This document shows, in pieces, positions 1,111 to 38,827 of a stretch of 64,000 bases of DNA. The translations under genes were made by a program, and so were the position numbers. The DNA is taken from the NCBI RefSeq assembly GCF_007748055.1, contig NZ_CP036279.1; one strand, written 5' to 3'. The notes under the pieces are model-generated. The model saw only the letters and a program-made list of their open reading frames with translations, was not told the DNA's origin and ran no database searches. Position 1 is the first letter of the stretch. Every line of letters starts with the position of its first letter. This stretch comes from Kolteria novifilia (GTDB lineage: Bacteria; Planctomycetota; Planctomycetia; Kolteriales; Kolteriaceae).

Positions 1111-2802
1111 TCACGGCTTGCCGGGTTGTCCTTGCTCCGATGAATCGGTCGACGAAGTCACCGACTCGAAGGTCGGCCCAATGCGAAGTCGATCGATCAA
1201 CAGCCGATCGTGCGGCTCGGTATGCTGCCCCATGCGAAAGCCGAGGAAGGTCGACTTCGGGACTCCCTTGGCATCTTCTCGGCGAATGACTTCGACATCG
1301 GCGGGTTGGCGATCTCCCGGACGAGGGTTCATCCAAAGCTCGAGTCGGTCGGGCTCACCGTCGCGCGATCGCCGCAGGGCCGCGACAAACCAATAGGTCG
1401 CCCCATCCTGGGCTCGCTCTTGAACCACTTCGTGTCCGTGGTGTAGTCGAGCGAAGATCCAGCCGAAGCGAATGCCGACGTTGGGGGCGCGACTGTGACT
1501 CGAATCCATCGTGGCGGCATCGTCGAGCCAGAACGAGAAGAAGTCGTCCCGGTCGAGCCCGTCGTAGCGAGCAAGAAAACTGATGTAGAGGTCGTCGTCG
1601 CCAACCGTCGGCAGTTTGCGAACGATGCGGTTCGCGATCGACGGATAGGCCGGATCCCGGCCGTGCAGCGCCACCGCGGTTTGTCCGGCCGTTTCTCCCG
1701 GCAGCGTCAGCCCTGGGGCGACGACTTCGGCGAAGGGAACGTCGGCGCGCCAAGCGTGGTCGCCAAACCCTTCGCCCCCGTGGCTGCCGTCGAAGTCTCC
1801 CACTTGGTAGTCGAAGTCATCGGCAATGAGCTTCGGTGGAGCCGCCACCCGCGCATCCGTCTCCGCGAGGGCATCGGTCGATTCGTCGAGTTTTCCCGGG
1901 CGGGTGACAAGCGTCCCTTTCCGGACGGCCGCGATTTGTTCCAAGGTCGGCAGATCGCCAAAAACGTTACTCGCGGCGGCAAACCGGGCATCAACCGCAA
2001 AGTCGCGCGGAAACCGACCCGCTTGCTGGGCGGTCAGTCGCGTCTGGCCAGGCTCCCGCGTGGACCGGACGTCGGCGACGCCATCAAAGACGTGAACATC
2101 GGTCTCGCCGGCGGCATCGACCACCAGGCCGACCTGCCTCAAGTTCCCGACGATGTTGGTGCTCGGGGTGACGACTTCTATCGGATCGGCGGATTCGGGG
2201 ATCCGGGCGTGAATGTTGCCCGCGTGCAGCGCGATCTTACGGGGCGAGGACAACTCGAGCCGACAGGGCCCTTGCAGCGTCATCGCCACGCCGTTGTCGA
2301 ACGCGAGCCGAGCCGTGCCACTTTCGAGCGCGACGGTCTCGCCCTGGCGGAAGCGATCGCCGTAGGAGGGGACGTTTCCGTCCGGCCATGTCGCGTCCTC
2401 GGTGTCAACCAGCGACGCGATGAGCCTTGACGGCTCGGGGCCCGCCGGTTGCCGGTTCGCTCCACGCCACGGCGACCATAGGACGATGGTGAGAAGCAGG
2501 ATGGCGGCGGCGACGAACGTAGTCATCGTCGCGAGGCGTCGCTTCGAATGCCGCGTTGCCGGTTCCGTGGCACTCGCGGGGGAGAGGGTATCGGCAAGTG
2601 CCGACATCTCGGGCGACTCCTCGACGTAGAGTTCGCTGGAGAGCATCGCCTCCAAGTTGACGTGGTAGACGTACTCGCGAATCAACTCGGGATCGCGTCT
2701 CAGGTGTGCGGCGAGTCGTTCCTCGTCCTCGCCACGAAGTGACCCCTCCACGGCGTGGCGAAGCAGGGTCTCCCAATCTCGTCTCGCGTCGGAGTCGCTC
2801 AT
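1111..2802 (-). CDS. FecR-like anti-sigma factor with one TM helix and a C-terminal LamG-like jellyroll domain
   Basis: The ORF is 1111..3141; the plausible start is M114 (MSDSDARRDWETLL), which overlaps the sigma stop as ATGA. TM segment FVAAAILLLTIVLW. FecR-domain sequence: GETVALESGTARLAFDNGVAMTLQGPCRLELSS. Confidence 0.8.
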   Translation of the reverse strand: MSDSDARRDWETLLRHAVEGSLRGEDEERLAAHLRRDPELIREYVYHVNLEAMLSSELYVEESPEMSALADTLSPASATEPATRHSKRRLATMTTFVAAAILLLTIVLWSPWRGANRQPAGPEPSRLIASLVDTEDATWPDGNVPSYGDRFRQGETVALESGTARLAFDNGVAMTLQGPCRLELSSPRKIALHAGNIHARIPESADPIEVVTPSTNIVGNLRQVGLVVDAAGETDVHVFDGVADVRSTREPGQTRLTAQQAGRFPRDFAVDARFAAASNVFGDLPTLEQIAAVRKGTLVTRPGKLDESTDALAETDARVAAPPKLIADDFDYQVGDFDGSHGGEGFGDHAWRADVPFAEVVAPGLTLPGETAGQTAVALHGRDPAYPSIANRIVRKLPTVGDDDLYISFLARYDGLDRDDFFSFWLDDAATMDSSHSRAPNVGIRFGWIFARLHHGHEVVQERAQDGATYWFVAALRRSRDGEPDRLELWMNPRPGDRQPADVEVIRREDAKGVPKSTFLGFRMGQHTEPHDRLLIDRLRIGPTFESVTSSTDSSEQGQPGKP

Positions 2803-5848: not shown

Positions 5849-7234
5849 ATGAGCCAAGCGGGCCGAGTCGGTAACGGAGAGGCTGTCGTTCTTGTTGCCG
5901 ATGACGACGCCGTGACAAGGCGCTTGCTCTGTCGACACCTTGAGGCGGCAGGCTACCAGGTCATCGAGGCCGCCGACGGCGCCGAGGCGACCGCCCATTT
6001 GACCACCGATCTCGCGGTCGCCCTCATCGATCTTCAGATGCCCAGGGTTTCGGGGCTCGACTGTCTCCGCCACGCGCAACGCCACTGTCCCGATCTCCCC
6101 GTCCTCGTCATTTCCCAGTTCAGCGAGGTTCGCGACGCGGTGGCGGCGATGAAGGAAGGAGCCTTCGACTACGTCACCAAGCCGGTCGATCCCGAGGAAC
6201 TCCTGGTGCATGTCGCTCAAGCGCGCCGTTCGGCGAGGCTCACGCAGGAGAACCGCCAACTCAAGGAAGTCGTCGGTGGGTCGATGCCGGCGGAGATCAT
6301 CGGCGGCGACTCGGCCGCGTCCCGAACGCTCTTCGAACAGATCGAGAAAATCGTCCCCATCGACGCGACGGTCCTGATCACGGGCGAGAGTGGGACCGGA
6401 AAGACGACCATCGCCCGTTTCATCCATCAGCATGGCCCGCGAGGATCACAGCCCTTCGTGGTGGTCAACTGTGGAGCGTTGCCACGGGAACTGATCGAGG
6501 CGGAACTCTTCGGCCACGTCCGCGGGGCCTTCACCGGAGCGGTCGCCGATCGACCCGGACGGGCCGACATGGCCGATGGCGGCACGCTCTTTCTCGACGA
6601 GATTGGCGATCTGCCGCTCGAATTGCAGCCGAAACTGCTGGCTTTTCTCCAGGATCGGATCGTCGAGCCGATTGGAGGAGGCAAACGGCGCAAGGTCGAT
6701 GTTCGGGTGATCGCCGCGACCCATCAAGATCTCGAATCGAAAGTCGCCGCGGGTGCGTTTCGGCAGGATCTCTATTTCAGGCTCAATGTGTTGCCGATCA
6801 CTGTTCCGCCGCTCCGAGAAAGACCTGAAGACGTGCCTCTCTTATGCGATCATATCCTGCGTCGCATCGCCGGGAAGCGGGGACAGGATCCGTTCGTTCT
6901 TCGCGAGGGAGCGAGGGAAAAGCTGGTCCAGCATCGTTGGCCCGGGAACGTGCGCGAACTTGAAAACGTCCTGGAGCGAGCGACGGCGTTCGCGACCGAC
7001 CGGGAGATCGACGTCGACGACTTGGGCTTCGCGGCCGACGTCGTGTCAGCCCCGCCAGGGGAGGGAGGCCGTCTCGCGGGGCGAACACTGGAAGAGATCG
7101 AGCGACAAGCGATTGTCGAAACGCTCGAGTGGGCCGAGGGGAACAAAAAGCAGGCCGCTCGAACGCTCGGAATCGACGAGAAGAGCATCTACAACAAGAT
7201 GAAACGCTTGGGGATCTCTTGGAACCGAGGATGA
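5849..7234 (+). CDS. Sigma-54-dependent response regulator (NtrC family: receiver + AAA+ + Fis-type HTH)
   Basis: Receiver domain (VVLVADDDAVTRRLL ... ALIDLQMP). AAA+ motifs GESGTGKT, GAFTGA and ELFGH. C-terminal HTH QAARTLGIDEKSIYNKMKRLG. RBS GGAG lies 12 nt upstream of the start. Confidence 0.9.
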   Translation: MSQAGRVGNGEAVVLVADDDAVTRRLLCRHLEAAGYQVIEAADGAEATAHLTTDLAVALIDLQMPRVSGLDCLRHAQRHCPDLPVLVISQFSEVRDAVAAMKEGAFDYVTKPVDPEELLVHVAQARRSARLTQENRQLKEVVGGSMPAEIIGGDSAASRTLFEQIEKIVPIDATVLITGESGTGKTTIARFIHQHGPRGSQPFVVVNCGALPRELIEAELFGHVRGAFTGAVADRPGRADMADGGTLFLDEIGDLPLELQPKLLAFLQDRIVEPIGGGKRRKVDVRVIAATHQDLESKVAAGAFRQDLYFRLNVLPITVPPLRERPEDVPLLCDHILRRIAGKRGQDPFVLREGAREKLVQHRWPGNVRELENVLERATAFATDREIDVDDLGFAADVVSAPPGEGGRLAGRTLEEIERQAIVETLEWAEGNKKQAARTLGIDEKSIYNKMKRLGISWNRG

Positions 7235-8778
7235 GACCGAGGGCACGGGTTCGGCTCCGAAGCGAGCAGAGACACGGTGGCCGGCGCCTGCGAGGACTCG
7301 CGGCGGGACCAGTGCTCGTCGCATGGTGCGCGCTGCTTGCGCTGGGGACGAAAGCGCTTGGCCAAACCGCCGAGCCCGCGAAGCTTCCGGTCGACTTTCG
7401 GACGCGGGTTGAACCGATTCTCCAAGCGCATTGCGTCTCCTGTCATGGCCCGAGCGAAGCCAAGGGCGGACTCCGGCTCGATCGACGGGCCTACGCGGCG
7501 CGCGGGGGAGACTCCGGCAAGTCGTTGCTGAAGATGCCGCTTGACGAGAACGAGCTGATTCGCCGAGTCTCCGCGGCTGACCGGAACATCATCATGCCGC
7601 CCGAGGGGCCGAAGCTCTCCCAAGTGCAGATCGCGACGCTGGAGGCCTGGATCGCGGAAGGGGCGCCTTGGCCGACGTCGACAAGCGACGCGCCGCAGTC
7701 GATTCACGCCGACAAGGACAAGGGGTTCTGGAAGACTTTTGACGCGTTCGTGCCCTTTTTTGAGCACCATCTTCGGCTGCCGCTGGCGATCGTGCTCCCC
7801 TTTCTCATCCTCTACTGGATCGCCGTCCGGACCCGTCGTCGACAAAAGGCCACGACAAACGAAGCTCCCTCGTCGCTTTCCAGAACCATCGCGCACTTCG
7901 GTCCGTCGCATCTCTGGATCGTGGTGCTGTTGATGACGCTCCTGACAACGACGACTTATCTGGCCGAATTGCACGAGCGACTTGCGACCCAGGAGAAGAG
8001 GCTCAAGCAGCGCCGCCTCGCGACAAGCCCGACGGCCGAAGATGTCGTGGGCGACGAGGGGAAGCCGATTCGTCCTCATCACCCGAAACGTCTCGGCGGG
8101 ACGTACTATCGGGGCAACGACGAGCGCAACGAGAAACTCTTCAACAACGGCTTCTACCGAACCGCGACCTTTCACCTTTCGCTTCTCGATCAAGACAAGC
8201 GCAAGCTCGGCCTCGGAGACCGAATCGAACCGGGGCAGCGGCTCTTCGTTCGCGTGGAGATCGAGCGTTCGCCCTTCGCGACTCCGGCGCTCTTTTCCAA
8301 GGAGGTGATGGAGCAGGCCTATTTGACCGACTTGCCCGAGGGGACGGAGATCGCCGACGCGACGATCGCTCCGGTTCCGTTTCGCACGGCGGTCGAGGGT
8401 GAGCGTTGGTTGGCCGACTATCCGATCGACCTTCCCGCGTCGGGCGACGCCGACCCGCTAAAGGGGCTGATTCACGTTTACAAAGGCAACGCCGACACGC
8501 AGATCTCGGGGACGCATCATTACGGGGTTGAGTACGAACTGGTCGTCACCCAGGGGAAGCTCGACGCGGCGTCGGAACTCTGGATGGGACCGACGTACGT
8601 CACCGGGAACGTGATGATTCCGGTCCCTGGGAAGATGTCGATCGAGGAGTGGTTCGACTGGCGTCCCCTCCCCGAGATTCCCCACGAGCAGACGAAGGAT
8701 CCGAAGCTTCTGGGCGTTCCCGAGCACCTCGGCGCCGACTACGACCCCTCCGCGCAAGAGAAAAGCCCTCCCGAGTAG
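7231..8778 (+). CDS. Membrane protein with an N-terminal PSCyt1-type cytochrome c (CxxCH) domain, two TM helices and a C-terminal domain of unknown function
   Basis: The start chosen is M35 of ORF 7129..8778 (MRPRARV...), which overlaps the regulator stop as ATGA. Signal/TM segment VLVAWCALLALGTKALG. Heme motif ILQAHCVSCHGPSEAKGGLRLD. TM helices LPLAIVLPFLILYWIAV and HLWIVVLLMTLLTTTTYL. Confidence 0.7.
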   Translation: MRPRARVRLRSEQRHGGRRLRGLAAGPVLVAWCALLALGTKALGQTAEPAKLPVDFRTRVEPILQAHCVSCHGPSEAKGGLRLDRRAYAARGGDSGKSLLKMPLDENELIRRVSAADRNIIMPPEGPKLSQVQIATLEAWIAEGAPWPTSTSDAPQSIHADKDKGFWKTFDAFVPFFEHHLRLPLAIVLPFLILYWIAVRTRRRQKATTNEAPSSLSRTIAHFGPSHLWIVVLLMTLLTTTTYLAELHERLATQEKRLKQRRLATSPTAEDVVGDEGKPIRPHHPKRLGGTYYRGNDERNEKLFNNGFYRTATFHLSLLDQDKRKLGLGDRIEPGQRLFVRVEIERSPFATPALFSKEVMEQAYLTDLPEGTEIADATIAPVPFRTAVEGERWLADYPIDLPASGDADPLKGLIHVYKGNADTQISGTHHYGVEYELVVTQGKLDAASELWMGPTYVTGNVMIPVPGKMSIEEWFDWRPLPEIPHEQTKDPKLLGVPEHLGADYDPSAQEKSPPE

Positions 8779-10030: not shown

Positions 10031-10557
10031 CGTTTCCCCTTCCCATGAGATGCGTTTTCTTCCCTGGCAGTTGGCACCATGCCGGCTCGACCTTCGATGA
10101 ATCCCGCGTCTCGAATCGTCCGTTCGTTCAACCACCGCGGCGGTGTCGCCTTTGTCGATCTTCCCTGGGTACCATGCTCACGTTTGCGTGGGCATGCGGT
10201 GAAGACCTACCTTGCAAATGGCGAAGTACCCTCTGGCAATGGTTGGCGACGAGCTTGCCAATCCGAGACTGGTCCGAATGGTCTGCCACGTTCCTGCCTG
10301 TCGGATCTACCTAGAGTAGCAACAGCCATTCCAAAAAGCTGCCGCCACCCAAACCACCATTCTCCCGAAACGGGCGAGCGACTGCAACCTATTTGTAGCA
10401 AGCAGGATAGGGCGATCTTGCCGGAGTCGAACGTGCGTCAATCGGCACCGAGATGGGCGGATGACTCTGGTTCGAGCTCGATGGGAGGCTTCTCGACTGG
10501 AAATTCTCCCGTTGGTCCTCATGCGGCTGGAAAATTTCCTGCCGGTTGGAAGCCTGG

Positions 10558-12399
10558 TCAAAAGATCCCGTGGAGGGGGCCGCCGGCAGCGGCGAGGGCA
10601 TCCACACGTTTGGTGACCTCCGGATCCTCGATCAACGGCGGGGCATGGTGCGGCTTGAGCCGGGCATCGATCACCAGCGAGCCGTGGCAGCCCCAGTGTT
10701 TCTGCACGCAGAACGATTCGATCCCATGGATGTCCGCCGCTGGATTGGCCCGCGTGAAGGTCACCCACAGGAAGTTTCGCACCGTCCTGGCGGTGAACTC
10801 ACTGTCGTCGACCAGCACGACGAGCGGGAACGCGTTGATCGGATGCCGAGCATCGAGCGATTCGGTGAACCGGATCAGCGATTCCTCGTACTCCCCGGCA
10901 TCGTCGGCGTAGGGCGGCGACTTGATCGCGAGAATGCCGGGCAAACAAAGCCGAGGTTCCTCGAAGTCCTCCGGCAGCGAACAATCGCTCGGGATCTCCT
11001 TGGGAAGGACTCGCCGAGCCGGACCGACCGCCGCCATCACCAGCTTCGACCCCTCGTTGAAGCCCGAGCCCGAATAGTCGAGCGTGTCGATCGTCGTCGA
11101 GGTCTGAAAATGGAGATCGAACGCCCAGTCGATCCGTTCGAGAAGATGCCGGAAGAAGGCGGGGATGTCGCTGATGTCGAGTTCCGGGTCGTCCTCGTTC
11201 GCGACGATCAGCAGGAATTTCGCAAGCGAGAGCTGACCCTGGCCCAGGATCGCGTTGGCGCACGTCAGCAACTCCTGCGGACGCTTCCGCTCGGCATAGG
11301 GGACGTAACGCTCGCTGCCAATCGCTAGCAGCAGCGGATGAACGCCCGCCTCGTCGACGGCATGCACGGCATGAACGCCATGAACGACCGTCGGGATGAC
11401 CGGGCCGGTCAGCTCGTGGATGAACTTGCCAAAGGTCGTGTCTTCCTGCGGTGGCCGACCAACGACGGTGAAAGGCCAGATCGCGTCGTCGCGGTGGTAG
11501 ACGCCGTCGACGTTGAGCACCGGGAAGTCGTGGGCCAAGCTGTAGTAGCCGAGGTGGTCGCCGAAGGGGCCTTCGGGAAGCAATTTGTCGGGGTCGATCC
11601 AACCGGTGATGCAGAAGTCGGCATCGGCCGCGATGGCCGGCTCGGCGCTGCGCCGCACGATGCGAAGTCGCCGTCCACCGAGTGCTCCCGCGAAGGAGAG
11701 TTCGGGAAGTCCCTCGGGAAGGGGCATCACCGCCGCGACCGACATCGCTGGTGGGCCGCCGACGAAGATGTTCACCCGCAGCGGTTGGCCTTTCTTGATC
11801 GCCGCGGCGTGGTGGACGCCGATGCCCCGGTGAATCTGGTAGTGCAACCCGATCTGCTTGTCGGGCGCGTAGTCGCTACCGGAAATCTGGACGCGGTACA
11901 TCCCCAGGTTCGACTTGCCGGTGCCGGGGCGACGCGGATCCTCGGTGTAGACCTGCGGCAGGGTCACGAAGGGTCCGCCATCGCGGGGCCACGACGTGAT
12001 CGCGGGAAGGTCCGAGAGGTGGATCTTGTTGGCGAGGACCGGTCCCTTGCTCATCCGCTTCGGCAGCGTGTTCCAGCCGGTCAGCGGCAGCCCGAGGTAG
12101 CGCCAGGGACGTCGGCCGAAGTTGGTCGGATCGACCTTGAGTTCGACCAGCCGCCGGACGCGCTCGAGGGTATCGCGAAAGATAAACTCCGCCCGCTCAA
12201 GGGTACCGAAGAGGTTGCTGACAAGGGGAAAGCGACATCCTTTCGGCCTAGTGAAGAGCAGAGCTGGGCCTTGCGCTTCGTAGACGCGGCGCTGGATCTC
12301 GGCGACCTCGAGAAACGGATCGACCTCGGCATCGACGCGGACCAAGTGCCCGTGCTGCTCGAGATCCCGAACGCATGCTGCGGTGTTGCGATAGCCCAT
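10558..12399 (-). CDS. ubiD: UbiD-family decarboxylase (3-octaprenyl-4-hydroxybenzoate carboxy-lyase / menaquinone-type)
   Basis: 613 aa. The N-terminus (DLEQHGHLVRVDAEVDPFLEVAEIQRRV) and overall length are typical of the UbiD family. Confidence 0.85.
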   Translation of the reverse strand: MGYRNTAACVRDLEQHGHLVRVDAEVDPFLEVAEIQRRVYEAQGPALLFTRPKGCRFPLVSNLFGTLERAEFIFRDTLERVRRLVELKVDPTNFGRRPWRYLGLPLTGWNTLPKRMSKGPVLANKIHLSDLPAITSWPRDGGPFVTLPQVYTEDPRRPGTGKSNLGMYRVQISGSDYAPDKQIGLHYQIHRGIGVHHAAAIKKGQPLRVNIFVGGPPAMSVAAVMPLPEGLPELSFAGALGGRRLRIVRRSAEPAIAADADFCITGWIDPDKLLPEGPFGDHLGYYSLAHDFPVLNVDGVYHRDDAIWPFTVVGRPPQEDTTFGKFIHELTGPVIPTVVHGVHAVHAVDEAGVHPLLLAIGSERYVPYAERKRPQELLTCANAILGQGQLSLAKFLLIVANEDDPELDISDIPAFFRHLLERIDWAFDLHFQTSTTIDTLDYSGSGFNEGSKLVMAAVGPARRVLPKEIPSDCSLPEDFEEPRLCLPGILAIKSPPYADDAGEYEESLIRFTESLDARHPINAFPLVVLVDDSEFTARTVRNFLWVTFTRANPAADIHGIESFCVQKHWGCHGSLVIDARLKPHHAPPLIEDPEVTKRVDALAAAGGPLHGIF

Positions 12400-29399: not shown

Positions 29400-30107
29400 A
29401 TGGTTCACTCCAGCAACGTTCATCACCTGGTTATTGTTCTCTTGTCGGCGTGGTCGGTCGCCGCCGCGGTCGCGGACGATCCTCCCTCGGCGACGAAAGA
29501 GGCACTTGATGCGTACCGTCGTCTCGTCGGCTCGGCGCGTGAGGAGATGCTCACGGGATTTGATGTCGTGCTTCGCAAACTGCCATCACAAACTCAACGG
29601 CTAGGGGAAAGCGAGCAGTACCGATTGAGCAAGTTGATCGACGACGAGAAGCTTCGTTTCAAGTCCGAGGGCCTCATCCCGTGGTCGCTGCCGATGCGTC
29701 CCTACCTCGATCAGTATCGTCGGACGATGTCCAAGGCCCAGGATCGACTCCGGCGGGTGTACGACACCGCCATCAAGCAAGCCACGCAGTCGGGGGATAC
29801 CAATCAGGCGGACATCTTGCTGGCGGAGCTCGAAGGGACCATAAAGCCGCAGGTCGTCGCGGTTTGGCGACACAACGCGGGCAGGGGCGGGCGGCGGAAA
29901 CTCTTCTACTCCAACGGCAAGATCAGCGAACCAGACGCCGCCAATCAATGGACCTTTCAGCGTGGTAATTTACTCCTCGTTTGGAAGGACCCCAAGGCTC
30001 CAGGGGGAGCTTGGAAGGATCGCTGCAAGGTTGCCGACGATGGGTTGACCTACCTGGGACGCAACCAACGGGGAACCAAGATCCGTGGCGAGTATGTCAC
30101 CAAATAG
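29400..30107 (+). CDS. Hypothetical secreted protein
   Basis: Start at M18 (MVHSSNVHHLVIVLLSAWSVAAAVA, a signal peptide). I recognise no family. Confidence 0.45.
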   Translation: MVHSSNVHHLVIVLLSAWSVAAAVADDPPSATKEALDAYRRLVGSAREEMLTGFDVVLRKLPSQTQRLGESEQYRLSKLIDDEKLRFKSEGLIPWSLPMRPYLDQYRRTMSKAQDRLRRVYDTAIKQATQSGDTNQADILLAELEGTIKPQVVAVWRHNAGRGGRRKLFYSNGKISEPDAANQWTFQRGNLLLVWKDPKAPGGAWKDRCKVADDGLTYLGRNQRGTKIRGEYVTK

Positions 30108-30382
30108 GTTGGGGTGATGGTAGGTCACTACTTCGTGAATCTCCATCCGATACTACTGACGGGTAAGCTCTCGATGGAACCCAAATCTGGGATGTGAAGA
30201 AGGTCGATGACCGATTGGCGGACGAGGAGATGCGTATAAAGACCATTCACTGATTGGGACTGAGTGGAATTGCGATGGATGAGGTGTGGACGCTTTGCCC
30301 TAGCACCGTTTCGATTCCTTGAGGCACACTGAATGGAGTATGTCGCGATGGGTACGACTGGATCGGACTCCACGAACAATTC

Positions 30383-30916
30383 ATGAAACGAAGGCATGAT
30401 GATCGTTTGCATGAACTTGTCGTAGTCCGGGGTCGTCCTCCCGCGCCGGAGTGCTTCGCCGAAACTGGTTCCGCAATATATGGCGGTGAGATCTGTCTCA
30501 TGGCAACACCAAACTCCGTGGATGCGAGACTCTTCTATCGTTGCGCCTTTCATCGCTATGAGGATGCTCAGATCTTGCTGAAGGCAGCCCATACGACCGG
30601 GGCTGTTTACCTTGCGGGTTACGGAGTAGAATGCATCCTAAAATCGCTGATCCTGAAAGAAACGCCACGCGCAAGTCAGAAAGACGTTTTTGGCTCTTTT
30701 CGGGGAGGAAGAGCGCATGACTATGATTGGCTGCGAACTCAATATCGTCAGAATGGAGGGGCGAAGTTTCCGCGAGAGGTTACGGAAGCATTCACTCTCA
30801 TCAACTACTGGTCGACCGACTTGAGATATGTTCCTAGCAACGTGAGAGATAACGACGCCGACGGCTTCCTATCGGCGGCAGGAAAGATCATTGATTGGGC
30901 AAGAGGGAGGCTTTGA
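30383..30916 (+). CDS. HEPN-like domain protein (putative RNase toxin / abortive-infection component); an alternative start is M40 at 30500
   Basis: The helix block AVYLAGYGVECILKSLIL plus RGGRAH (Rx4H) fits a HEPN fold. The gene sits in a visibly lower-GC islet. Confidence 0.5.
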   Translation: MKRRHDDRLHELVVVRGRPPAPECFAETGSAIYGGEICLMATPNSVDARLFYRCAFHRYEDAQILLKAAHTTGAVYLAGYGVECILKSLILKETPRASQKDVFGSFRGGRAHDYDWLRTQYRQNGGAKFPREVTEAFTLINYWSTDLRYVPSNVRDNDADGFLSAAGKIIDWARGRL

Positions 30917-30917
30917 C

Positions 30918-31241
30918 ATGTCCATCAACATTCCAAGGGGACAATCCGACGAAGTGATCGAGAGAATCGTTGAAGCGCTAAAGGATTACGAAAAGAAGCA
31001 CAAGGACGCCGCCGTCGACATCTACCGTCAGAATCCATTCTCTATCCGGGTCAGGATTGTCGACTCGGGATTCGCAGGCATGACGAAAGTCGAACGCAGC
31101 AATATCGTTTGGGAGTACTTAAAATCGGTCACTGATGACGATGTTTCCGATATCAGTACCTTGCTGCTTCTCACTCCCGAAGAGAAAGAAACGTCATTCG
31201 CGAATTTCGAGTTCGATGACCCTGTTCCTTCAAACCTTTGA
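30918..31241 (+). CDS. Small hypothetical protein with acidic C-terminus; possible partner of the HEPN-like gene
   Basis: Its ATG follows the HEPN stop after 1 nt. MSINIPRGQSDEVIERIVEALKDY...; no nucleotidyltransferase (MNT) motif is present. Confidence 0.4.
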   Translation: MSINIPRGQSDEVIERIVEALKDYEKKHKDAAVDIYRQNPFSIRVRIVDSGFAGMTKVERSNIVWEYLKSVTDDDVSDISTLLLLTPEEKETSFANFEFDDPVPSNL

Positions 31242-31447
31242 GGTCCCAGTTCGCCTTGCTCGAGAACGTCGGGTTTCATCGCTCAGGGGGTTGGCGGAAG
31301 TGCGAACGATGACTGGTGGAGTTAGACAGCGTCTGGCAGCACTTGGCGTCATGTCGTCGGTAGGGCTTCGCGACGGAGGGGAAGTTTCGCCATTTTGGAG
31401 TAACGCGTCCGGAAAGCCGGGATTGCTCCCGGCTCTCCGTCTCGCGA

Positions 31448-32554
31448 TTACAGCATATTGACCACTCGGTCGGCAAGTCCCTTGTCGCCAAGGACGACGT
31501 TGAGGTTGCCGCTGCTGGCGACCTTCTCGAGCACTTCCAGCTCGCGCAGCCGCATGAGGGTCGGGTTGTCGACGAGGAGCCGAGCGGTGTTGGCCTGCGA
31601 ACGCATCGCGGCGGTCTCCTCGCGGCGGGCGATCAGGTTCGCCTCGGCCGCCTTCTTCGCCTCGGTCACTCGATTGAGCAGGTGCTTCATGTCGCCCGGA
31701 AGGATCACGTCGCGGATACCGACCGAGACGATCTCCAGACCGAGTTCTCTCGCTCGCTTGGCCACCGACTCGGCGAACTCGCCGGTGACCGCGTCCTTGT
31801 CGGTCAGGAACGCGTCGAGATCGCGTGTCGCGACGATTGCCCGGAGCACGAGCTGGGCGTCGCGGTAGAGCGACTGACGGGCGCCGTCGCTGACGGTCAC
31901 CCCTTGACGAGCATCGATCACCCGGTAGACGACCACGGCGTTCATCCGTAGCGTCACCTTGTCGGCGGTCATGATCTCCTGACCGGTGACGTCAAGCGTC
32001 TGGTCGCGCAGGTCGACCTCGATCACCTTCGAGTCGGCGACTCCCTTCCAGAAGGCGTAGGTGCCCGGTGGCAAGGTTTCGACGTACTTGCCGTCGAGGA
32101 ACGACACGCCCGCCGCGTAGCGGTTGACGGTGCGGACCTCAAGGACCTGTCCGGAGTAGGGACTGCGGACGATGACCCTGAAATCGTCGTGCTCGAAGCG
32201 CGGCTTGCGGGCATCGACCACCTCGACGCGTACTTCCTTGAAACCCTTCCAGTAGGCGTAGAGGCCCGGCGGCAGGACATGGCTGAAGCGGCCATCGATC
32301 CATACCAGACCGCGCTCGTTGTCCTTCAGGTCGACGACATCGGCCTGGCCCTCGAGCGCTCCGCTCTTGACGATCAGATCGAGTTGCTCGTGACGCAGCC
32401 ACGGGGCTCGCCGCGAGACGACCTCGACGCGAATCTTCCAAGTGGGACCGGGCACCCAGTGGCGGCCGGCGGTCAACAGACCCTGGAACTCACCATCGCG
32501 GAAGGAGAGGCCGACCTCGTCCTTTCGAATCAACACTCGCTTGAACAGTACCAT
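31448..32554 (-). CDS. SPFH / band-7 (stomatin-prohibitin-flotillin) domain protein with duplicated N-terminal beta-domains
   Basis: 368 aa. The C-terminal SPFH-like region is ADKVTLRMNAVVVYRVIDARQ ... EAKKAAEANLIARREETAAMRSQA. Confidence 0.8.
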   Translation of the reverse strand: MVLFKRVLIRKDEVGLSFRDGEFQGLLTAGRHWVPGPTWKIRVEVVSRRAPWLRHEQLDLIVKSGALEGQADVVDLKDNERGLVWIDGRFSHVLPPGLYAYWKGFKEVRVEVVDARKPRFEHDDFRVIVRSPYSGQVLEVRTVNRYAAGVSFLDGKYVETLPPGTYAFWKGVADSKVIEVDLRDQTLDVTGQEIMTADKVTLRMNAVVVYRVIDARQGVTVSDGARQSLYRDAQLVLRAIVATRDLDAFLTDKDAVTGEFAESVAKRARELGLEIVSVGIRDVILPGDMKHLLNRVTEAKKAAEANLIARREETAAMRSQANTARLLVDNPTLMRLRELEVLEKVASSGNLNVVLGDKGLADRVVNML

Positions 32555-33001
32555 CGGTCACCCTCCTTTCACTTGGGGGATATCAGGACTCGGTGCCACA
32601 GTTGCTCGCCGTGGCGATCTCTCGTTCCATGTTTCCCAACGCGGCCAAGAGACGCCCTCGGGCAGCGAGACGAGTCACGCGATCACGTGGCAAAGTCGCG
32701 GGGGCCGCTTGAGCCGCGAGAAGCGCGCCACCATCCGACCGGTTCCCGCGGCGAGGCGTCAGGGGCGTGCCCCCGGCGCGACCACCGAGTTTCTCGACCA
32801 TCGAGTGTCGCGCGTCCGGCGGCGGTATCGACGGACCGCAGGGCGCTCGTCCACGCTGCCGGTTCGCGGACCCTTCGCTCGGTTCGGGCCGAAGCCGTCG
32901 CGTTGCTGGGGGCCGCTCGCGGCCGATCACGTGCTTGTTCGCTGCCGTCGGGCTCTTGGAGACGGGTGCATGCGCACCCACACAGGTTAGGAGCCTGTGC
33001 C

Positions 33002-33075
33002 CATGTGGTACGGGACTCGAACCCGCAACCATCAGGCCATGGGCCTGACGCGCTTACCAGTTGAGCCAACCATCA
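33002..33075 (-). pseudogene. Degenerate tRNA-like element (anticodon-like CAT); the acceptor stem does not pair
   Basis: D-arm GCTC-AACTGGTAA-GCGC. Anticodon arm TCAGG-CCCATGG-CCTGA. T-arm GCGGG-TTCGAGT-CCCGT. Only 4 of 7 acceptor pairs form, and position 33 is C. Confidence 0.3.
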
Positions 33076-33387
33076 AGGCGGCATGAGCGTCACTCGCCTT
33101 CGAAACCATTCGCGGAACGGGCCAAGCCAATCAGTCGCCTGAGGCCGGGCACGCCGCTGGTGACATGGGAGCGACATTCCATCACTCCCAGCGACGCCGG
33201 AACATGCATTCCTAAAATTTCAGCAACGGAGGAGTCCCACGCCGCTTGCCCGGGCCCGACCGGCGCTCGGTGAAGCCAAGCCCGGGGCAAGCGGGGGACA
33301 TGAACGCTTCCAGACCGTTGGATCAACCGATCTGGTCCGCCATCGGTTCTCCCTTCGCGCAGTTGTTTCACCTGTCTGCTCAATGAG

Positions 33388-33460
33388 TGGACCGGGAGGG
33401 AATCGAACCCACCACACCGACGTTGCGAAAGTCGGTCGCCCCCTTGGCACATGCCAGCCC
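33388..33460 (-). ncRNA. tRNA-Ala-like element (G3:U70, discriminator A, anticodon-like CGC) with a non-canonical D region
   Basis: Acceptor GGGCUGG/CCGGUCC with G3:U70. Anticodon arm CCGACU-UUCGCAA-CGUCGG. T-arm GUGGG-UUCGAUU-CCCUC with one mismatch. The 3' end resembles tmRNA/tRNA-Ala ends. Confidence 0.35.
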
Positions 33461-34016
33461 ATTCGTCGAGAGAACGTGGTTCGGTTCATCGCCGAACCGG
33501 TGCCCGAGACGAGCGCACGAAAAAGCCCGACATCATCGTGACGCCGGGCATGGGGGATCGTGAGTGTCGCCCACTCGTCACCACCTGCCCGGGAGCGTCG
33601 CGAATCCCTGCTGAAGGAATGCGTCGCGCCGCCTCGTCGGAAAGATTCGCGGTTGTAGCTCGTTGGCAGCCAACATGGTCACCCCTCCGTCACGTTCACT
33701 CGACGATGCTAGAGACTCGTTTGGAAAGGGTGCGGTTCGCCGGTTTCTCGGAATTCCAAGCGTTTTTGTGGTGAGAATCAGCGGGGGTGGCATCGGGAGT
33801 CGACGCCATCTCCTCTTGAAATCGGTATCGTCAGTAGAGGGGCTTCGCGGGGTTCGTGGGCCTGACGCGAATGACGCGAGCGGCGACGCGAAGGAATGGG
33901 ACGTTCGTGGCGCGGAGTGAGAAGGGACGAGTGCCCATCGGCGAGTTGACGATCTTTTCGCTTGGGGAAGACCGTGGGCTTGGTTGGGACGAGGGATCAA
34001 ACGAGAACGCGACTCG

Positions 34017-36278
34017 ATGATTGGATTCGATGAACTCTTTCTGACGTACGTGGCTGCCACGGAGAGGGAGGTCTGGGGCGACATCCTGGGAGCGATTCAA
34101 CGTCTTCCGACGCCGACACCCGGCGAAGGCTCCGTGCGGCAGGCATTGGTCAACTTCGGGGTTCTCACCGCGGAGCGGCTCGGGAAGCTCGAGGAACAGC
34201 TCGGCGCCATGCTCGACGAGATCGACTGGAACCCGAAGACGGCCTTGAGAACGCTCCGCGAACGGCTCGAACCGGGCGACCGGCGTATCCTTCAGCGCTG
34301 GTTTCCCGAGACGAGTTCGCTGGAAGAGGTTCCCGAGCATCGCACCCAGTTCGTCATGGACAGTTTGTACGCGCGGGGCGGACTGGGGGAGGTTTGGCGG
34401 GTTCGCGAGTCGGGAACGGGCCGTATGGTGCTTCTCAAGCGCATGCGTCAGGAACTAGTTTCCGACCCGATTCTCGTGAAACGCTTTCTTCGGGAAGCAC
34501 GCATGACCGCGAGGCTCGAGCATCCGAGCGTCGTTCCCGTCTATCACGTTCCCGACGAGGCGACCGACGAAGGTCCGTTCTACGTCATGCAGCACCTTCA
34601 CGGCCGGACCCTCGAGGCGAGCATCGCCCAACTTCACGTCTCGGAAATGTCCGGTTCCGATCGACGCGTGATGTTGCGCGACCTGTTGCGCCGTTTCCTA
34701 AGTGTCTGTGAAGCGGTCGCCTTCGCCAACTCCCAGGGAATCGTCCATCGCGATATCAAACCCGAGAACATTATCTGCGGCGAGTTCGGCAGCACCTACT
34801 TGATCGACTGGGGATTGATCAAACTGGTCGAGCGCGGGGAGGAGACGGCCGCGTTGCCCTCGCCCTCGCCCATGGTGAAGGGGGCGACCGTCGCGGGCGA
34901 ACGGGTCGGGACGCCCGAATGGATGGCGCCCGAGCAAGCCAGTGGAGGAGATGTCGACATTCGCACCGACGTCTACGGGTTGGGAGCGACCCTCTTCACC
35001 ATCCTGACGGGGGGGCCTCCTCATCAAACGGCGCCGATTCTGGTGGCGACTTATCGCCGGATCGTGGACGAACCGACCCCGCGCCCCCAGGACCGCAAGA
35101 GCTCCGTCTCGCCGACGCTCGACGCGATCTGCGCCAAGGCAATGGCCAAGAGGCCGGAGGATCGTTATCCGTCGGTCAAGGAGATGGTCCGCGACTTGGA
35201 ACGTTGGGAGGTCGGTGAGCCGGTTTCATGTCACAAGGAGAGCCTGAGTCGGCGACTTGCCCGAGGGCTGATGAATCGTCCCTCGCGCTCAATCGTGCTC
35301 GGAGGCGTGATCCTCATCTCGATGTGTTGCACGCTATTGATCGCGGCGGCTTGGAGCGTCAGCTCGTCGCTGACCAAGAAGATGACGCGGAAGCTCATGG
35401 ACGAGAAGTCGAACTCGATCGCCGCGATCTTGGACAGTGAGTTCCAGCGGGTGCGGGTCGATGTGCTGTTTCTCTCCCGTCTTGGGGATACCGTCGCCGC
35501 GTTGAGCGATCCCGAGGGAGTGAGTGGCTCGGAGGACGATCTGTCGTATTTGAAGGCCTTCCTGCAGATGCGGCCTTCCTTCGAGAAGGTTCGCATCCTC
35601 TTTCCGCCCGGTGTCTCCAAGAGCTATCTCGAAGTGAAACGCGTTGGCCACGAGAAGTTCGAGGTGAAGCGTCGCGGCGATCCGATGGAGATGCTCACGC
35701 GTATCGCGGAACTTCGGGATTCGGAAGCGAACGAGGTCGTTCTCTTGAGTCGACTCGAGGAACCTGGGGCCGGCCACCACCTGCAATCGCAAGTCGTTCT
35801 CGGAACCAAGGTCACCGAAGACAAGAGAGTGATCGGCTATCTCTTGGTCAACGTTTCGCTACCGCCACTATTCGACCACGCCGTCGGCCAGCACCAGTTC
35901 GCGAGCATCGGGTTTGTCAACTCGGTCGGTGAGCAACTTTGGTGGAGTCCCGCTTCCAGTGAAGCCGACGACCAACCGAGTTGGCACGACGTCGACACCT
36001 TGGTCGGCCCGGCGGCGTTCGCCAAGGACCATGCGCCGGGAATGTTGATCGAGGACGATGGGCTGCACGTCACGGGTGTCCGCTTCCTCGACGCGACGCT
36101 CGGGAAGAACACCGCCAAACTGGCGGTCGTCATCTCGGCCAACCTCTGGGACCTCCCGCATGGCCCGCGAGAGTTCGTTCTGACGTTGCTCTACTACACC
36201 GTGGCGATCATCGTGCCAATCATCCTCGTGGGGGCGTTTCTGCGGCTCCTTCTCGTCCAGGTCGCGTTGGATGACTGA
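34017..36278 (+). CDS. Ser/Thr protein kinase with a TM-anchored C-terminal sensor region
   Basis: Start MIGFDELFL, an N-terminus conserved with its paralog. Kinase motifs VHRDIKPENI, DWGL and GTPEWMAPEQ. TM helices VLGGVILISMCCTLLIAAAW and the C-terminal VAIIVPIILVGAFLRLLLV. Confidence 0.85.
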   Translation: MIGFDELFLTYVAATEREVWGDILGAIQRLPTPTPGEGSVRQALVNFGVLTAERLGKLEEQLGAMLDEIDWNPKTALRTLRERLEPGDRRILQRWFPETSSLEEVPEHRTQFVMDSLYARGGLGEVWRVRESGTGRMVLLKRMRQELVSDPILVKRFLREARMTARLEHPSVVPVYHVPDEATDEGPFYVMQHLHGRTLEASIAQLHVSEMSGSDRRVMLRDLLRRFLSVCEAVAFANSQGIVHRDIKPENIICGEFGSTYLIDWGLIKLVERGEETAALPSPSPMVKGATVAGERVGTPEWMAPEQASGGDVDIRTDVYGLGATLFTILTGGPPHQTAPILVATYRRIVDEPTPRPQDRKSSVSPTLDAICAKAMAKRPEDRYPSVKEMVRDLERWEVGEPVSCHKESLSRRLARGLMNRPSRSIVLGGVILISMCCTLLIAAAWSVSSSLTKKMTRKLMDEKSNSIAAILDSEFQRVRVDVLFLSRLGDTVAALSDPEGVSGSEDDLSYLKAFLQMRPSFEKVRILFPPGVSKSYLEVKRVGHEKFEVKRRGDPMEMLTRIAELRDSEANEVVLLSRLEEPGAGHHLQSQVVLGTKVTEDKRVIGYLLVNVSLPPLFDHAVGQHQFASIGFVNSVGEQLWWSPASSEADDQPSWHDVDTLVGPAAFAKDHAPGMLIEDDGLHVTGVRFLDATLGKNTAKLAVVISANLWDLPHGPREFVLTLLYYTVAIIVPIILVGAFLRLLLVQVALDD

Positions 36279-36530: not shown

Positions 36531-36577
36531 GCAAGCCGTCGATGGCGTCGGCCGACATTCGGGGGGGGCGAACGCGC

Positions 36578-38827
36578 ATGATCGACTACGACGAGCTGTT
36601 CCTCCTGCTCCTTCTGGCCGAGCACCCCCACAAGATCGCGGGCGCTCGTCGGCTAGCGAGCATGGAAAGCAGTGACGCGACCGACGCGACGCTGCGCCAA
36701 CGGCTCCTGGAGCTTGGCGTCGTCTCGTCGATCGAGTACGAGCGACTCGAGGCACGGCTGACGGCACTCCTTCGGGAGAGCTGTTGGAACGCGAACGCCG
36801 TTCGCGACACGCTGCTGTCATCAGCATCTCTCGATTCTCTGGACGTGATCCGACGCTACTTTCCGATGTTCTCGACCACGCGCGGTTCCGTCAGCGGGAC
36901 GAATTTCCTCAATGAGGGCGTCTTCGCGCGGGGTGGTTTGGGCGAGTTGCTGCGCGTTCGCGAACCCGGCACTGGGCGGGAAGTCCTTCTCAAACGGGTT
37001 CAGCCCGGACTCGGCGACGAAGCCCAGATCCACTCGCGCTTCGAACGCGAGGCCCACGTGACAGCTCAACTCGAGCATCCCAACATCGTCCCGGTCTACT
37101 ACGTGCCGGCGCCGGACGAAGACTCGACGCCGTTCTACATCATGCGACTGCTGCAAGGACACACGCTCGCCGAGGAGATTCGCGACTTCCACGCTCAAGC
37201 ACCGGTGGGCGAAGAGAAGAACCAGAAGATCCAGCAACTGCTTCGTCGTCTCCTTCGGGTCTGCGACGCGGCGGCCTTCGCTCACGACCGTGGGGTGATT
37301 CATCGCGATATCAAGCCATCCAATATTATCTGCGAGGACTTCGGCAGCACCTACTTGATCGATTGGGGGCTCGTGAGGCTGATCGATGCCAAGGAGGAGT
37401 TCGGCGTCCGGTCGAATCTCCTTTCGCGCACTCGCGTCGATTCGGGCACGAAGTGCGTGGGCACCCCCGGTTGGATGTCGCCGGAGCAAGCGACCGGGAA
37501 CGTCGTCGACGAGCGGAGCGACATCTACGCGATCGGCGCCGTTCTCTTCGCGATCCTCACCGGCGACGTTCCTCATCGAGATGCGGACGCCTCACCCAAC
37601 CGGCAGGCGAGCGCCGAGTGGCCGGACGCTCGGGTTCGCGAGCAGTTCGGCCGGGTTTCCAGAACGCTCGGGGCGATTGCCTGCAAAGCGATGGCTTTCG
37701 ATCGTGCCGAACGCTATGCCAACGTCTCCGCGCTTGCCGACGATCTTGACAGATGGACGACGGGGCGTCCCGTCTCCTGCTACCGCGAGCCTTGGATGCG
37801 GAGAATGGCACGCCGCATTGTCACTCATCCCTCGCGTTCGATCTATCTCGGCGGCGCGCTGGTCGTCCTATTTTGCTGCGCGGCCCTCGTCGGTTCCGCT
37901 TGGTGGACCAACAAACGGATCGTGAAACATGCCGCCATCGCCATCACCGAAGACAAGGTCGACTCGATCGCAAGCAGTCTCGAGTACGCCCTGAATCGGG
38001 CAAAGAATGGCGTCCGCCTGCTTGGCCGGTTGCGAGAGACGCTCGATTTGGTCGAGGAAAGGGACGCGACGAAGATCCGAACGATGACGTCGAACGGACT
38101 CGGCACCTTTCTGGCGGAGCGTCCGGAGATGGGAATGATCGCGTTCGCCAACGCGGCGTTCGACGGGAGCATCGTGGAGCTTCGCCGTGGGAATGAGGGT
38201 GGTGGCGTCTTCATCAAGGCGACGACGGAACTTGTCCACGCGGATCAAGTGAGAAGGCATCTCGTGAGGATGGAGGAAGGGACGGTCGCGATGTTTCCGC
38301 GAGAGGCAGGCAAGGACCTCCCCGCGAAGTTCGGATCCGAGATCTTCCTCGGCACCAAGGTCGTCGAAGGGGAAACCTTGCGCGGCTACGTCTGGGTGAC
38401 ACTCGATCTTCGCGAACTCATACTTCACTCGTTGGGCACGATGCTCTACGCCGACGCGTTGATCACCAATTCCGACGGGGAGACGATCTTCTGGCGACCC
38501 GGTAGCATCCGGCGGCGTCAAGAGAGAGTTCCTCCCGAGTTGCCGTCCAGCATCACCTCCTTTCTGCGCGATCGAAGTGACCACACGCGCGGCAAGGTCT
38601 TTCGAGGGTCGGGACGGGTCATCGTGGCGCAGCGTTTTCCCATCGTCTTCGAGGATGCCGGCGAACATCTGGGAGTGGTCCTTTCCCTCAACATGGAAAT
38701 GGCTCCCTTCGGGGAGGAGGCGTTCGCGTGGAGAATGATCGCCGCGGTGATCGCGATCCTCGTACCGATCATCGTCGCGTCGATCTTGATGCGGATGGTC
38801 CTCGTGCAACTCGGGCGGCCGGACTGA
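36578..38827 (+). CDS. Ser/Thr protein kinase, paralog of 34017..36278
   Basis: Start MIDYDELFLLLL. Kinase motifs IHRDIKPSNI, DWGL and GTPGWMSPEQ. It has the same TM-sensor-TM architecture. Confidence 0.85.
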   Translation: MIDYDELFLLLLLAEHPHKIAGARRLASMESSDATDATLRQRLLELGVVSSIEYERLEARLTALLRESCWNANAVRDTLLSSASLDSLDVIRRYFPMFSTTRGSVSGTNFLNEGVFARGGLGELLRVREPGTGREVLLKRVQPGLGDEAQIHSRFEREAHVTAQLEHPNIVPVYYVPAPDEDSTPFYIMRLLQGHTLAEEIRDFHAQAPVGEEKNQKIQQLLRRLLRVCDAAAFAHDRGVIHRDIKPSNIICEDFGSTYLIDWGLVRLIDAKEEFGVRSNLLSRTRVDSGTKCVGTPGWMSPEQATGNVVDERSDIYAIGAVLFAILTGDVPHRDADASPNRQASAEWPDARVREQFGRVSRTLGAIACKAMAFDRAERYANVSALADDLDRWTTGRPVSCYREPWMRRMARRIVTHPSRSIYLGGALVVLFCCAALVGSAWWTNKRIVKHAAIAITEDKVDSIASSLEYALNRAKNGVRLLGRLRETLDLVEERDATKIRTMTSNGLGTFLAERPEMGMIAFANAAFDGSIVELRRGNEGGGVFIKATTELVHADQVRRHLVRMEEGTVAMFPREAGKDLPAKFGSEIFLGTKVVEGETLRGYVWVTLDLRELILHSLGTMLYADALITNSDGETIFWRPGSIRRRQERVPPELPSSITSFLRDRSDHTRGKVFRGSGRVIVAQRFPIVFEDAGEHLGVVLSLNMEMAPFGEEAFAWRMIAAVIAILVPIIVASILMRMVLVQLGRPD

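Follow-up and report, generated by a model that had tools for sequence, protein, structure and literature searches.

A structured RNA of about 530 nt with a tRNA-like domain and an odd tRNA-Ala gene upstream of a slipin gene in Kolteria novifilia

Locus organization in the window and in related genomes

The DNA described here is a stretch of 64,000 nt from Kolteria novifilia (RefSeq assembly GCF_007748055.1, contig NZ_CP036279.1), referred to below as the window. Between a slipin (SPFH/Band 7) gene and the first of two kinase genes it contains a region of 1.4 kb that is poor in open reading frames (ORFs). An earlier note on this DNA had reported two tRNA-shaped sequences on the minus strand of this region and no credible ORF. 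Both sequences were found, and both have full-length homologues at the same locus in many genomes. The T arms, the CAT loop of one sequence and the UUCGCAA loop, G3:U70 pair and discriminator A of the other are all present as the note described them, and none of the ORFs between the slipin and kinase genes carries a Pfam domain. The two sequences are called element 1 and element 2 here. The features of the locus are as follows.

31448..32554, minus strand: slipin gene (Pfam Band_7, E=4e-30), start codon at 32554
32652..33179, minus strand: large structured RNA of about 530 nt (nhmmer profile match, E=1e-83, model positions 13-521)
33003..33075, minus strand: element 1, a tRNA-like domain within the large RNA (acceptor remnant 33072-33069 with 33009-33006)
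33388..33460, minus strand: element 2, a 'type B' tRNA-Ala gene (anticodon CGC at 33427..33425, A73 at 33388)

The ORF-poor region is read as the reduced Kolteria version of a locus that is conserved across the Planctomycetia; this reading, taken as a whole with the large RNA and the type B tRNA, is given a probability of about 0.8. In the Planctomycetia the locus consists, in this order, of a long array of tRNA genes, the structured RNA of about 530 nt and the slipin gene. The window holds a remnant of the array rather than an array, with element 2 as the sole surviving array tRNA gene; further remnants were sought within 33180..34016 and none were found. The slipin protein encoded in the window is 100% identical to that of K. 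novifilia Pan216, which is the sole member of the order Kolteriales and has 49 annotated tRNA genes.

The loci of relatives were obtained through slipin orthologues. DNA around slipins of 75-77% identity contained upstream tRNA genes on the same strand, 23 in one genome of 6.75 Mb and 7 in two metagenome contigs. A scan with one genome per species yielded 80 loci, labelled L001 and so on, with slipins 64-77% identical; the RNA profile search covered 84 loci. ARAGORN detected same-strand tRNA arrays of up to 39 genes upstream of the slipin gene in the 80 species genomes, and up to 41 such genes were found on a single metagenome contig. The common order of the array is Phe Glu Pro Ile Lys ... 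Thr Ala Ala Ser Arg Ser His, a gap of 0.7-1.3 kb that is occupied in L001 by an HNH gene, and Trp Thr Arg Arg Arg Arg Cys. ARAGORN also calls a final "tRNA", whose distance to the slipin start codon is 400-650 nt and whose anticodon is different in nearly every species. Long tRNA arrays (L-arrays) are defined by at least 20 same-strand tRNA genes at no fewer than 2 per kb. The window, with one tRNA gene and one tRNA-like domain, falls short of this number, which the orthologous locus reaches in many relatives (23-41 genes).

Loci that were chosen by their slipin gene cannot test linkage, and metagenome contigs were therefore searched with a DNA pattern taken from the RNA alone. The RNA was present on 83 of the 120 contigs returned; on 46 of these its 3' end is complete and followed by 400 nt or more of sequence. 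A slipin gene follows on the same strand in 42 of these 46 copies, at a distance of 30-231 nt (median 79), and the 1.5 kb upstream of the RNA contains from 0 to 16 tRNA genes. The RNA and the slipin gene thus constitute the conserved core of the locus and the array its variable part.

The large RNA and its tRNA-like domain

The RNA profile originates from the 850 nt upstream of the slipin gene, aligned for the window and 12 relatives, in which a block of 522 columns was recognized. Conservation extends from just after the Cys tRNA, the last tRNA of the array, to about 100 nt before the slipin start codon; in the window the RNA ends 97 nt upstream of that codon. Essentially full-length matches were obtained in 73 of the 84 loci, with E values from 1e-35 to 1e-141. 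In total 154 distinct copies were found, in at least three orders of the Planctomycetia. Slipin orthologues with partial or full RNA copies also occur on contigs binned as Actinomycetota or Candidatus Kuenenia (L050, L066, L073); these placements are probably binning errors and not spread beyond the Planctomycetia.

The fold predicted from the profile alignment with RNAalifold begins with a 5' domain of nested helices, followed by a tRNA-like cloverleaf, two hairpins (HP1 and HP2) and a rod of about 280 nt with one side branch. Apart from the cloverleaf, the parts are located in the window as follows.

33089..33169, minus strand: 5' domain, nested helices around the conserved CCAGCGGCG and GUUCCG..AUGG (window pairs 3/6, 11/12 and 6/6)
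32982..32998, minus strand: HP1, hairpin of 5 bp whose loop of 7 nt reads CUCCUAA in the window; it follows the tRNA-like domain directly on the 3' side
32962..32977, minus strand: HP2, GGGUGC-GCAU-GCACCC in the window, read directly from the sequence, the profile alignment being out of register here
32654..32953, minus strand: 3' rod, with a long closing helix, a side branch and a long distal arm (helices 8-15, all with compensatory changes)

The same architecture, with 76 pairs, was recovered by an independent MAFFT and RNAalifold run on 53 representatives with a mean pairwise identity of 58%. Compensatory double changes occur in 52 of the 76 predicted pairs. Pair cells are paired in 94.3% of cases, as against 33-42% when the partners are shifted by 1-3 columns, and 448 double-change cells were observed, compared with 55-105 after shifting. 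On each of five measures, all 500 shuffles fell short of the observed value. G:U pairs are abundant, which places the RNA on the strand of the tRNAs and the slipin gene. The HP1 helix shows double changes in all 4 pairs (e.g. AU:19, CG:18) and forms 5/5 pairs in the window; HP2 in most relatives carries a GNRA loop (GCGC-GAAA-GCGC). The closing helix of the rod pairs GCCCGAGGG... with ...CCCGAGGGC and includes a symmetric GA/GA loop, and the conserved internal loops of the rod are UGCGUGGAUACCGC and GCUCAA..CUCCGC. The rod pairs formed by the window copy number 20/24, 4/7, 19/24, 3/3, 8/10 and 2/2.

No conserved open reading frame was found in the large RNA. A protein-coding reading was rejected, the longest stop-free run having a median of 71-98 codons in every frame and the indels not being multiples of three. 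A search of Rfam 15 at E<=10 with the window, L010 and L020 gave nothing over the large RNA except a local match to the tRNA model (model positions 3-68 or 4-67), and no description of such an RNA was found in the searchable literature. It is apparently undescribed and would represent a new RNA family associated with tRNA arrays. A pairing of the T-box type between GUGGAUACCGC and an ...ACCA end was considered, but most copies have no CCA, and no Rfam T-box match was obtained with the window, L010 and L020.

Of 113 distinct copies, 79 have a T-rich tract immediately behind the closing helix, in genomes with a G+C content of about 60%, and by sequence the helix and tract look like an intrinsic terminator. 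The RNA could be a purely cis-acting leader of the slipin gene, an attenuator in which a conditional terminator is combined with a tRNA-like domain that senses tRNA metabolism. The short, unconserved spacer and shared strand in the 42 unbiased cases and the T tract in 70% of copies are in line with this, and the spacer leaves little space for a separate slipin promoter. RNA and slipin gene are also duplicated together in L048, where two large-RNA copies (7023-7547 and 10254-10789) are each followed by a slipin gene or gene start, a tandem duplication. However, the RNA is intact across an intervening gene, 1.1 kb from the slipin gene, in L001 and L007, and likewise at 0.5-4 kb in L072, L084, L077, L039, L049 and L040, and this weakens a purely cis-regulatory role. 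No alternative (antiterminator) pairing was found, the length of 530 nt with many conserved internal loops is far larger than that of known leaders, and the window copy has no U tract. A leader function on its own is thus possible, but considered doubtful.

The tRNA-like domain, element 1, has the following arms in the window.

33066..33050, minus strand: D arm
33048..33032, minus strand: anticodon arm
33026..33010, minus strand: T arm

Its T arm is GCGGG-UUCGAGU-CCCGU, and its anticodon loop, CCCAUGG, contains the CAU triplet preceded by C33. ARAGORN calls it as tRNA-Met(cat) at 33001..33076, and the Rfam tRNA model scores it at 34.2 bits against a gathering threshold of 29, with mismatches flagged in the acceptor and D stems. 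The domains of relatives reach 52-56 bits, again as local matches to positions 3-68 and 4-67. The acceptor forms 4 of 7 pairs in the window, which is typical of the family. Across 140 distinct copies the pairs 5:68, 6:67 and 7:66 are formed in about 100%, and the pairs 4:69, 3:70, 2:71 and 1:72 in 57, 41, 31 and 21%, respectively; 32 copies form 6 of the 7 pairs and none has a 7-bp stem.

The arms of the domain are almost unchanged across copies (D stem, D-loop GG, T arm and anticodon stem), while the anticodon loop is free to vary at all seven positions. Mean identity is 85% in the domain outside the loop, the most conserved part of the RNA, compared with 47% in the loop and 54-59% in the other regions. 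The triplet takes 36 different values in the 140 copies, A34 occurs in 33% and U33 in 62%. Pairing of the triplet with a co-varying 'codon' elsewhere in the RNA was tried as an explanation and rejected: complementarity to the triplet does not exceed 15% of copies in any column, and the mutual information of the triplet with any column is at most 0.33, as opposed to 0.54-0.78 for true pairs. To judge by these sequence patterns, with strong selection on the elbow and stems and none on the anticodon, element 1 has the marks of a structural mimic of tRNA rather than those of a decoding tRNA or a pseudogene.

A different view of element 1 is that of a real tRNA which RNase P and 3' processing release from the transcript and which, once charged, takes part in translation, possibly as a variable 'recoding' tRNA with an anticodon that differs between species; bacterial tRNAs with an anticodon that does not match their amino-acid identity are known from Streptomyces. 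Such a tRNA would agree with the Rfam scores, in which the window copy passes the threshold, and with the canonical D and T arms and anticodon stem. An N73-CCA end is moreover encoded after the acceptor remnant in 37 of the 140 copies, against 1.6% expected by chance, among them L019, L020, L022, L023, L033 and L061 (e.g. ACCGACC-A-CCA), and is somewhat enriched among the copies with 6 acceptor pairs (14/32). Encoded CCA blocks RNase Z, and on one reading it protects those copies that are most tRNA-like from being cut out; the genuine tRNA genes of the window do not encode it. The acceptor data are against release, as the 7-bp stem is found in no copy and the pairs 1:72 to 3:70 form at about the level of chance. 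U33, universal in elongator tRNAs, is missing from more than a third of copies, A34 anticodons are rare in bacteria, and the whole 7-nt loop varies. Both flanks of the domain are conserved and pair into larger helices, and the Rfam alignments are local, omitting the top of the acceptor. Decoding by element 1 is therefore regarded as quite improbable.

The type B tRNA-Ala gene

Element 2 has a fully paired acceptor of 7 bp (GGGCUGG/CCGGUCC) with G3:U70 and discriminator A, a 7-nt loop UUCGCAA with the Ala anticodon CGC, and the T arm GUGGG-UUCGAUU-CCCUC. Its D region, CAUGUGCCAAGGGGGCGA, is non-canonical, position 8 is a C, and the stems contain the mismatches U31:C39 and U50:U64. CCA is not encoded, which is uninformative because the genuine Ser and Glu tRNA genes of the window, which score 55-60 bits, do not encode it either. 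Neither tRNA search recognizes element 2, in contrast to element 1: it is not called by ARAGORN in the window, nor are its type B counterparts in L009 and L075, and the Rfam tRNA model gives no match at E<=10. The only Rfam match is one of 13 nt to the T loop of transfer-messenger RNA (tmRNA), with 10.9 bits against a threshold of 47.

Full-length array genes 84-88% identical to element 2 are present in L001, L003/4, L006, L009, L075 and L080, where the counterpart sits between tRNA-Thr(GGU) and tRNA-Ala(GGC). These genes, designated type B, are characterized by C8-A9, a D stem UGCC/GGCG and a short loop containing GG; in one sub-lineage, to which the window belongs, a duplication of UG yields CAUGUNCC. 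A family profile recovered 18 distinct sequences, with 71 bits for element 2 and 49-81 for the members. In the 16 aligned members the pair cells of the cloverleaf are paired in 97.4% of cases, compared with 30-55% with shifted partners, and double changes affect 8 pairs, which belong to the acceptor, anticodon and T stems. In the acceptor 100% of pair cells are paired, 5:68 and 6:67 have changed in a compensatory manner, and G3:U70 and A73 are invariant (16/16). The anticodon is UGC in 17 of 18 members, in a canonical loop; that of the window, CGC, still specifies Ala. Stem-preserving changes in the window copy comprise U27:G43 to C:G and A49:U65 to G:C. Folded singly, element 2 is no better than its shuffles (z=0.07), a test that is uninformative for a single sequence. 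By its conservation, element 2 is considered a member of a selected gene family and not a decayed sequence.

With canonical tRNA-Ala the gene shares the 7-bp acceptor, G3:U70, A73, an Ala anticodon, the 7-nt loop and a canonical T loop. Its departures are C8 where canonical tRNAs have U8, the absence of A14, a D stem that carries either a 2-nt insertion or a 4-nt connector, and an anticodon stem that can be extended to a sixth pair, 26:44; it scores less than 11 bits in the Rfam tRNA model. It is a new, odd member of the tRNA-Ala genes of L-arrays. The arrays contain a second tRNA-Ala(UGC) as well, a fairly ordinary gene of 72 nt ('type A'), and often tRNA-Ala(GGC).

Alanyl-tRNA synthetase (AlaRS) recognises the acceptor end alone, for which G3:U70 is the established alanine identity, and element 2 should therefore be an alanine acceptor. 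As suggested by this identity, it would still be processed, given CCA and charged by AlaRS. An alanine-charged RNA of this kind could also serve outside the ribosome, for example as an alanine donor for aminoacyl-transferases of the cell envelope, with the altered D region barring it from translation; non-proteinogenic tRNA isoacceptors are known in Gram-positive bacteria. The invariance of G3:U70 and A73, beside a D region and positions 8 and 14 that differ from those of all canonical tRNAs, is consistent with such a role, as is the frequent presence of type A tRNA-Ala(UGC) and tRNA-Ala(GGC) in the same arrays. The UGC anticodon in its canonical loop in 17 of the 18 members nevertheless points to decoding, the CGC of the window remains an Ala anticodon, and no transferase gene is linked. 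A function away from the ribosome is accordingly thought unlikely.

The suggestion of the earlier note that the two sequences are decayed, as a tRNA pseudogene or as duplicates of attachment (att) sites left by integrative elements, did not hold. Some features would suit relics: the top of the acceptor is unpaired in element 1, which also has C33, neither ARAGORN nor the Rfam tRNA model recognizes element 2, the array has clearly been lost in the window, and beyond the slipin gene there is a low-GC stretch that contains a HEPN gene. Both elements are nevertheless full length and not 3' fragments; no second copy of either 3' end was found within 3 mismatches in the 64-kb window, and a scan of flanking ORFs revealed no integrase domain. 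The unpaired acceptor that the note had observed in element 1 is real, but it is, like the odd anticodon loop, a trait of the whole family of 140 copies and no mark of a pseudogene. Likewise the D region of element 2 is aberrant as the note stated, and is common to all 16-18 orthologues instead of a sign of decay; the U:U mismatch in the T stem, by contrast, is specific to the window copy. Neutral sequence would not retain 84-88% (element 2) or 73-85% (element 1 domain) identity next to slipins that are only 64-77% identical, and recent horizontal transfer of a dead sequence does not fit the mean identity of 58% or the covariation of the family. With both elements conserved and compensated across order-level divergence, the relic explanation is contradicted, and is held to be extremely improbable. 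The other suggestion of the note, an unusual tRNA-like RNA, was borne out by the invariant alanine identity set of element 2 and by element 1, which is not a working tRNA-Met. The likeness to tmRNA extends to the G3:U70/A73 logic and not to tmRNA features: Rfam gives only the short T-loop match, and ARAGORN found no tmRNA in the window, which would combine a tRNA-like domain formed by the 5' and 3' ends with a tag reading frame and pseudoknots.

Several observations weigh against the reading of the locus as a conserved and functional unit. The consensus structure was derived from the same sequences that were used to test it. The window RNA forms 82% of the consensus pairs, the sixth lowest value of 56 in a family range of 78-98%, and no promoter was found by a sigma-70-like scan of the locus, which may not suit planctomycetes. 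Lacking both T tract and a detectable promoter, this copy could be drifting in Kolteria; it is divergent, on the long Kolteria branch, but not obviously dead. Element 1 of the window has a mismatch in the D stem, its anticodon loop can zip into a 9-bp stem, and its sequence alone folds as a rod. The CCA encoded in 37 copies could point to release and charging of the domain in some lineages. The distance of 0.5-4 kb between the intact RNA and the slipin gene in about 8 genomes speaks against a purely cis-regulatory role. The mismatches 31:39 and 50:64 of element 2 occur in no other type B member, and given these private changes it may have been inactivated recently. Finally, all functional steps proposed for the locus are inferred.

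Comparison with known systems, possible roles and neighbouring features

Planctomycetes are listed, without detail, among the phyla with long tRNA arrays (PMC4758250; Santamaria-Gomez et al. 2021, PMC8421152). The arrays of the relatives share with L-arrays the dense same-strand tRNA genes, in dozens and for nearly all amino acids, an HNH endonuclease gene and some aberrant members. They differ from them in a gene order and a fixed chromosomal neighbour that are shared across families, which looks like vertical inheritance rather than sporadic horizontal transfer, and in the terminal large RNA and the slipin link, neither of which is described in PMC4758250 or PMC8421152. The window itself differs in keeping only one array tRNA.

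Two families of structured bacterial RNAs of more than 500 nt are found beside tRNA islands. GOLLD is common in the tRNA arrays of Mycobacterium, sometimes with tRNAs in its linker region, and ROOL also occurs near tRNA islands. The size of the planctomycete RNA, its tRNA unit and its position at the edge of a tRNA array would be compatible with a divergent member of either family. Neither Rfam model matches the window, L010 or L020 at E<=10, however, and an extended rod with one branch stands against the multi-junction, pseudoknotted folds of GOLLD and ROOL. The tRNA-like unit of the planctomycete RNA is a fixed, non-decoding domain, unlike the tRNAs of the GOLLD linker, and the RNA is tied to one protein gene, being chromosomal and vertically conserved beside slipin as a fixed neighbour in 80 species, and not borne by phages or prophages. 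Membership in GOLLD or ROOL is on these grounds very unlikely. A phage origin was likewise unsupported, as only 1 of 5 IMG/VR pattern matches is a true RNA copy. This copy lies on a 94-kb contig filed as viral (L086, IMGVR_UViG_3300007072_000340), together with a slipin gene and 10 same-strand tRNA genes; either the contig is planctomycete DNA that was misfiled, or a provirus call extends across the locus.

The genes of OLE RNA and tmRNA adjoin those of their protein partners, OapA and SmpB, respectively. The planctomycete locus resembles both in that a large or tRNA-like structured RNA is encoded beside a specific protein gene, and element 2 shares the alanine logic of tmRNA. There is no homology with either RNA, and the tRNA-like domain is internal, without an aminoacylatable end in most copies. 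Modules of tRNA shape also serve as handles for tRNA-recognising proteins in MALAT1/mascRNA, in viral 3' tRNA-like structures and in bacterial YrlA. These modules lie within or at the end of a longer RNA, as does element 1, which differs from them in its position in the middle of the RNA and in a full anticodon arm with a free loop. Rfam matches to mascRNA, YrlA and Tymo_tRNA-like, all weak and below threshold, are located on the adjacent Cys tRNA or close to the domain, and none covers the whole RNA.

The slipin carries two extra N-terminal beta-repeats ahead of the SPFH domain and a long helix. It starts with three repeats of the strand motif GxxFxDGxxxxxLxPGxYxxW, and no obvious membrane segment was seen by eye. 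Residues 140-354 match stomatin, which has been deposited as 16-chain assemblies, and the AlphaFold model (pLDDT 83) matches stomatin, HflK/C and prohibitin. The model also aligns, over a longer range of 402-437 columns, to the major vault protein, an architectural resemblance only. PADLOC assigned the slipin to no defence family.

In the proposed mechanism the RNA would be transcribed as the final part of the tRNA operon or, in genomes such as that of Kolteria that have lost the array, from a promoter of its own, and the transcript would stop at its own terminator-like end, the closing helix. The tRNA-shaped domain would stay embedded in the RNA as a docking or recognition module whose elbow and anticodon stem are bound by a partner that recognizes tRNAs, and it would not decode. 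The RNA may act together with the slipin, either by gating read-through into the slipin gene or as a partner of the slipin protein, possibly in physical contact. A further step would be a ribonucleoprotein particle in which a slipin cage or dome binds or encloses the RNA through the tRNA-shaped domain. This idea draws on the protein model and is a long shot; slipins are not known to bind RNA. If true, the particle would be a bacterial counterpart of the vault and vault RNA or of OLE and OapA, tied to a spare set of tRNAs under translational stress.

Large, intricately folded bacterial RNAs are rare, the known ones being mostly rRNA, RNase P, tmRNA, group I and II introns, OLE, GOLLD, ROOL and raiA. 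The RNA described here gives a handle on what the RNAs beside tRNA islands do and on the purpose of supernumerary tRNA arrays. It is made testable by its extensive covariation, a tRNA mimic with a free anticodon loop, a position at the end of the array and a near-constant SPFH neighbour. The tRNA gene counts of planctomycetes are distorted by two errors: genome annotation will overlook element 2, and it will record element 1 as tRNA-Met and the orthologues of element 1 as tRNAs with almost any anticodon.

Two hairpins of the window belong to the context of the locus.

33525..33549, minus strand: terminator-like hairpin of 11 bp followed by UUUUU, 65 nt upstream of element 2
33228..33300, minus strand: strong GC-rich hairpin between element 2 and the large RNA

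There is no minus-strand gene upstream of the first, which probably insulates the locus from upstream transcription. The stretch of 116 nt that contains the second (33205..33320) folds at -54 kcal/mol and has no homologue in related loci; the hairpin accounts for spurious Rfam matches to microRNAs.

In the arrays of relatives, the HNH endonuclease of L001 (3613-4209, plus strand, 198 aa) lies between tRNA-His and tRNA-Trp, its HNH domain being closest to those of IscB and Cas9, and a gap of equal size is present at this position in most arrays. L003 contains an array-embedded ORF of 263 aa (1136-1927, plus strand) without a family match. ARAGORN reports some array members with 'anticodons' of 4 nt (cggg, recurrent in several arrays, ttgg, ttga and taaa) or of 2 nt. 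The anticodon loop of such tRNA-like genes is 8 or 6 nt long, as in L020 3957, L051 4323, L078 2479, L006 2164 and L037 7441, among others. Arrays of the Lacipirellulaceae type contain, in about 8-10 loci, an interspersed, repeated and strand-specific element of about 100-130 nt with the motifs GCCGCCGA[GC]CG..AG[CG]GAGGA..GGCGGUAGC and CUACCGCCCUGCGCUCG-hairpin-GUGCUC[AG]G, and in some cases a 12-bp stem around it. It was located at 50-240, 331-480, 1020-1070 and 2400-2555 in L003 and at 1888-1930, 2209-2253 and 3347-3520 in L001. No Rfam family matches this element, which the window locus does not contain.

Just downstream of the slipin gene, the window contains a low-GC stretch at 30000-31400 (49-53%, compared with about 63% around it) with a HEPN-domain ORF (30383..30916, plus strand) and several small ORFs without Pfam match, which may be a small acquired island of the toxin-antitoxin type. 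The other side of the locus is flanked by two tandem paralogous Ser/Thr protein kinase genes on the plus strand (33984-36278 and 36542-38827), which encode proteins of 764 and 761 aa; the kinase domain begins near residue 130 in both.

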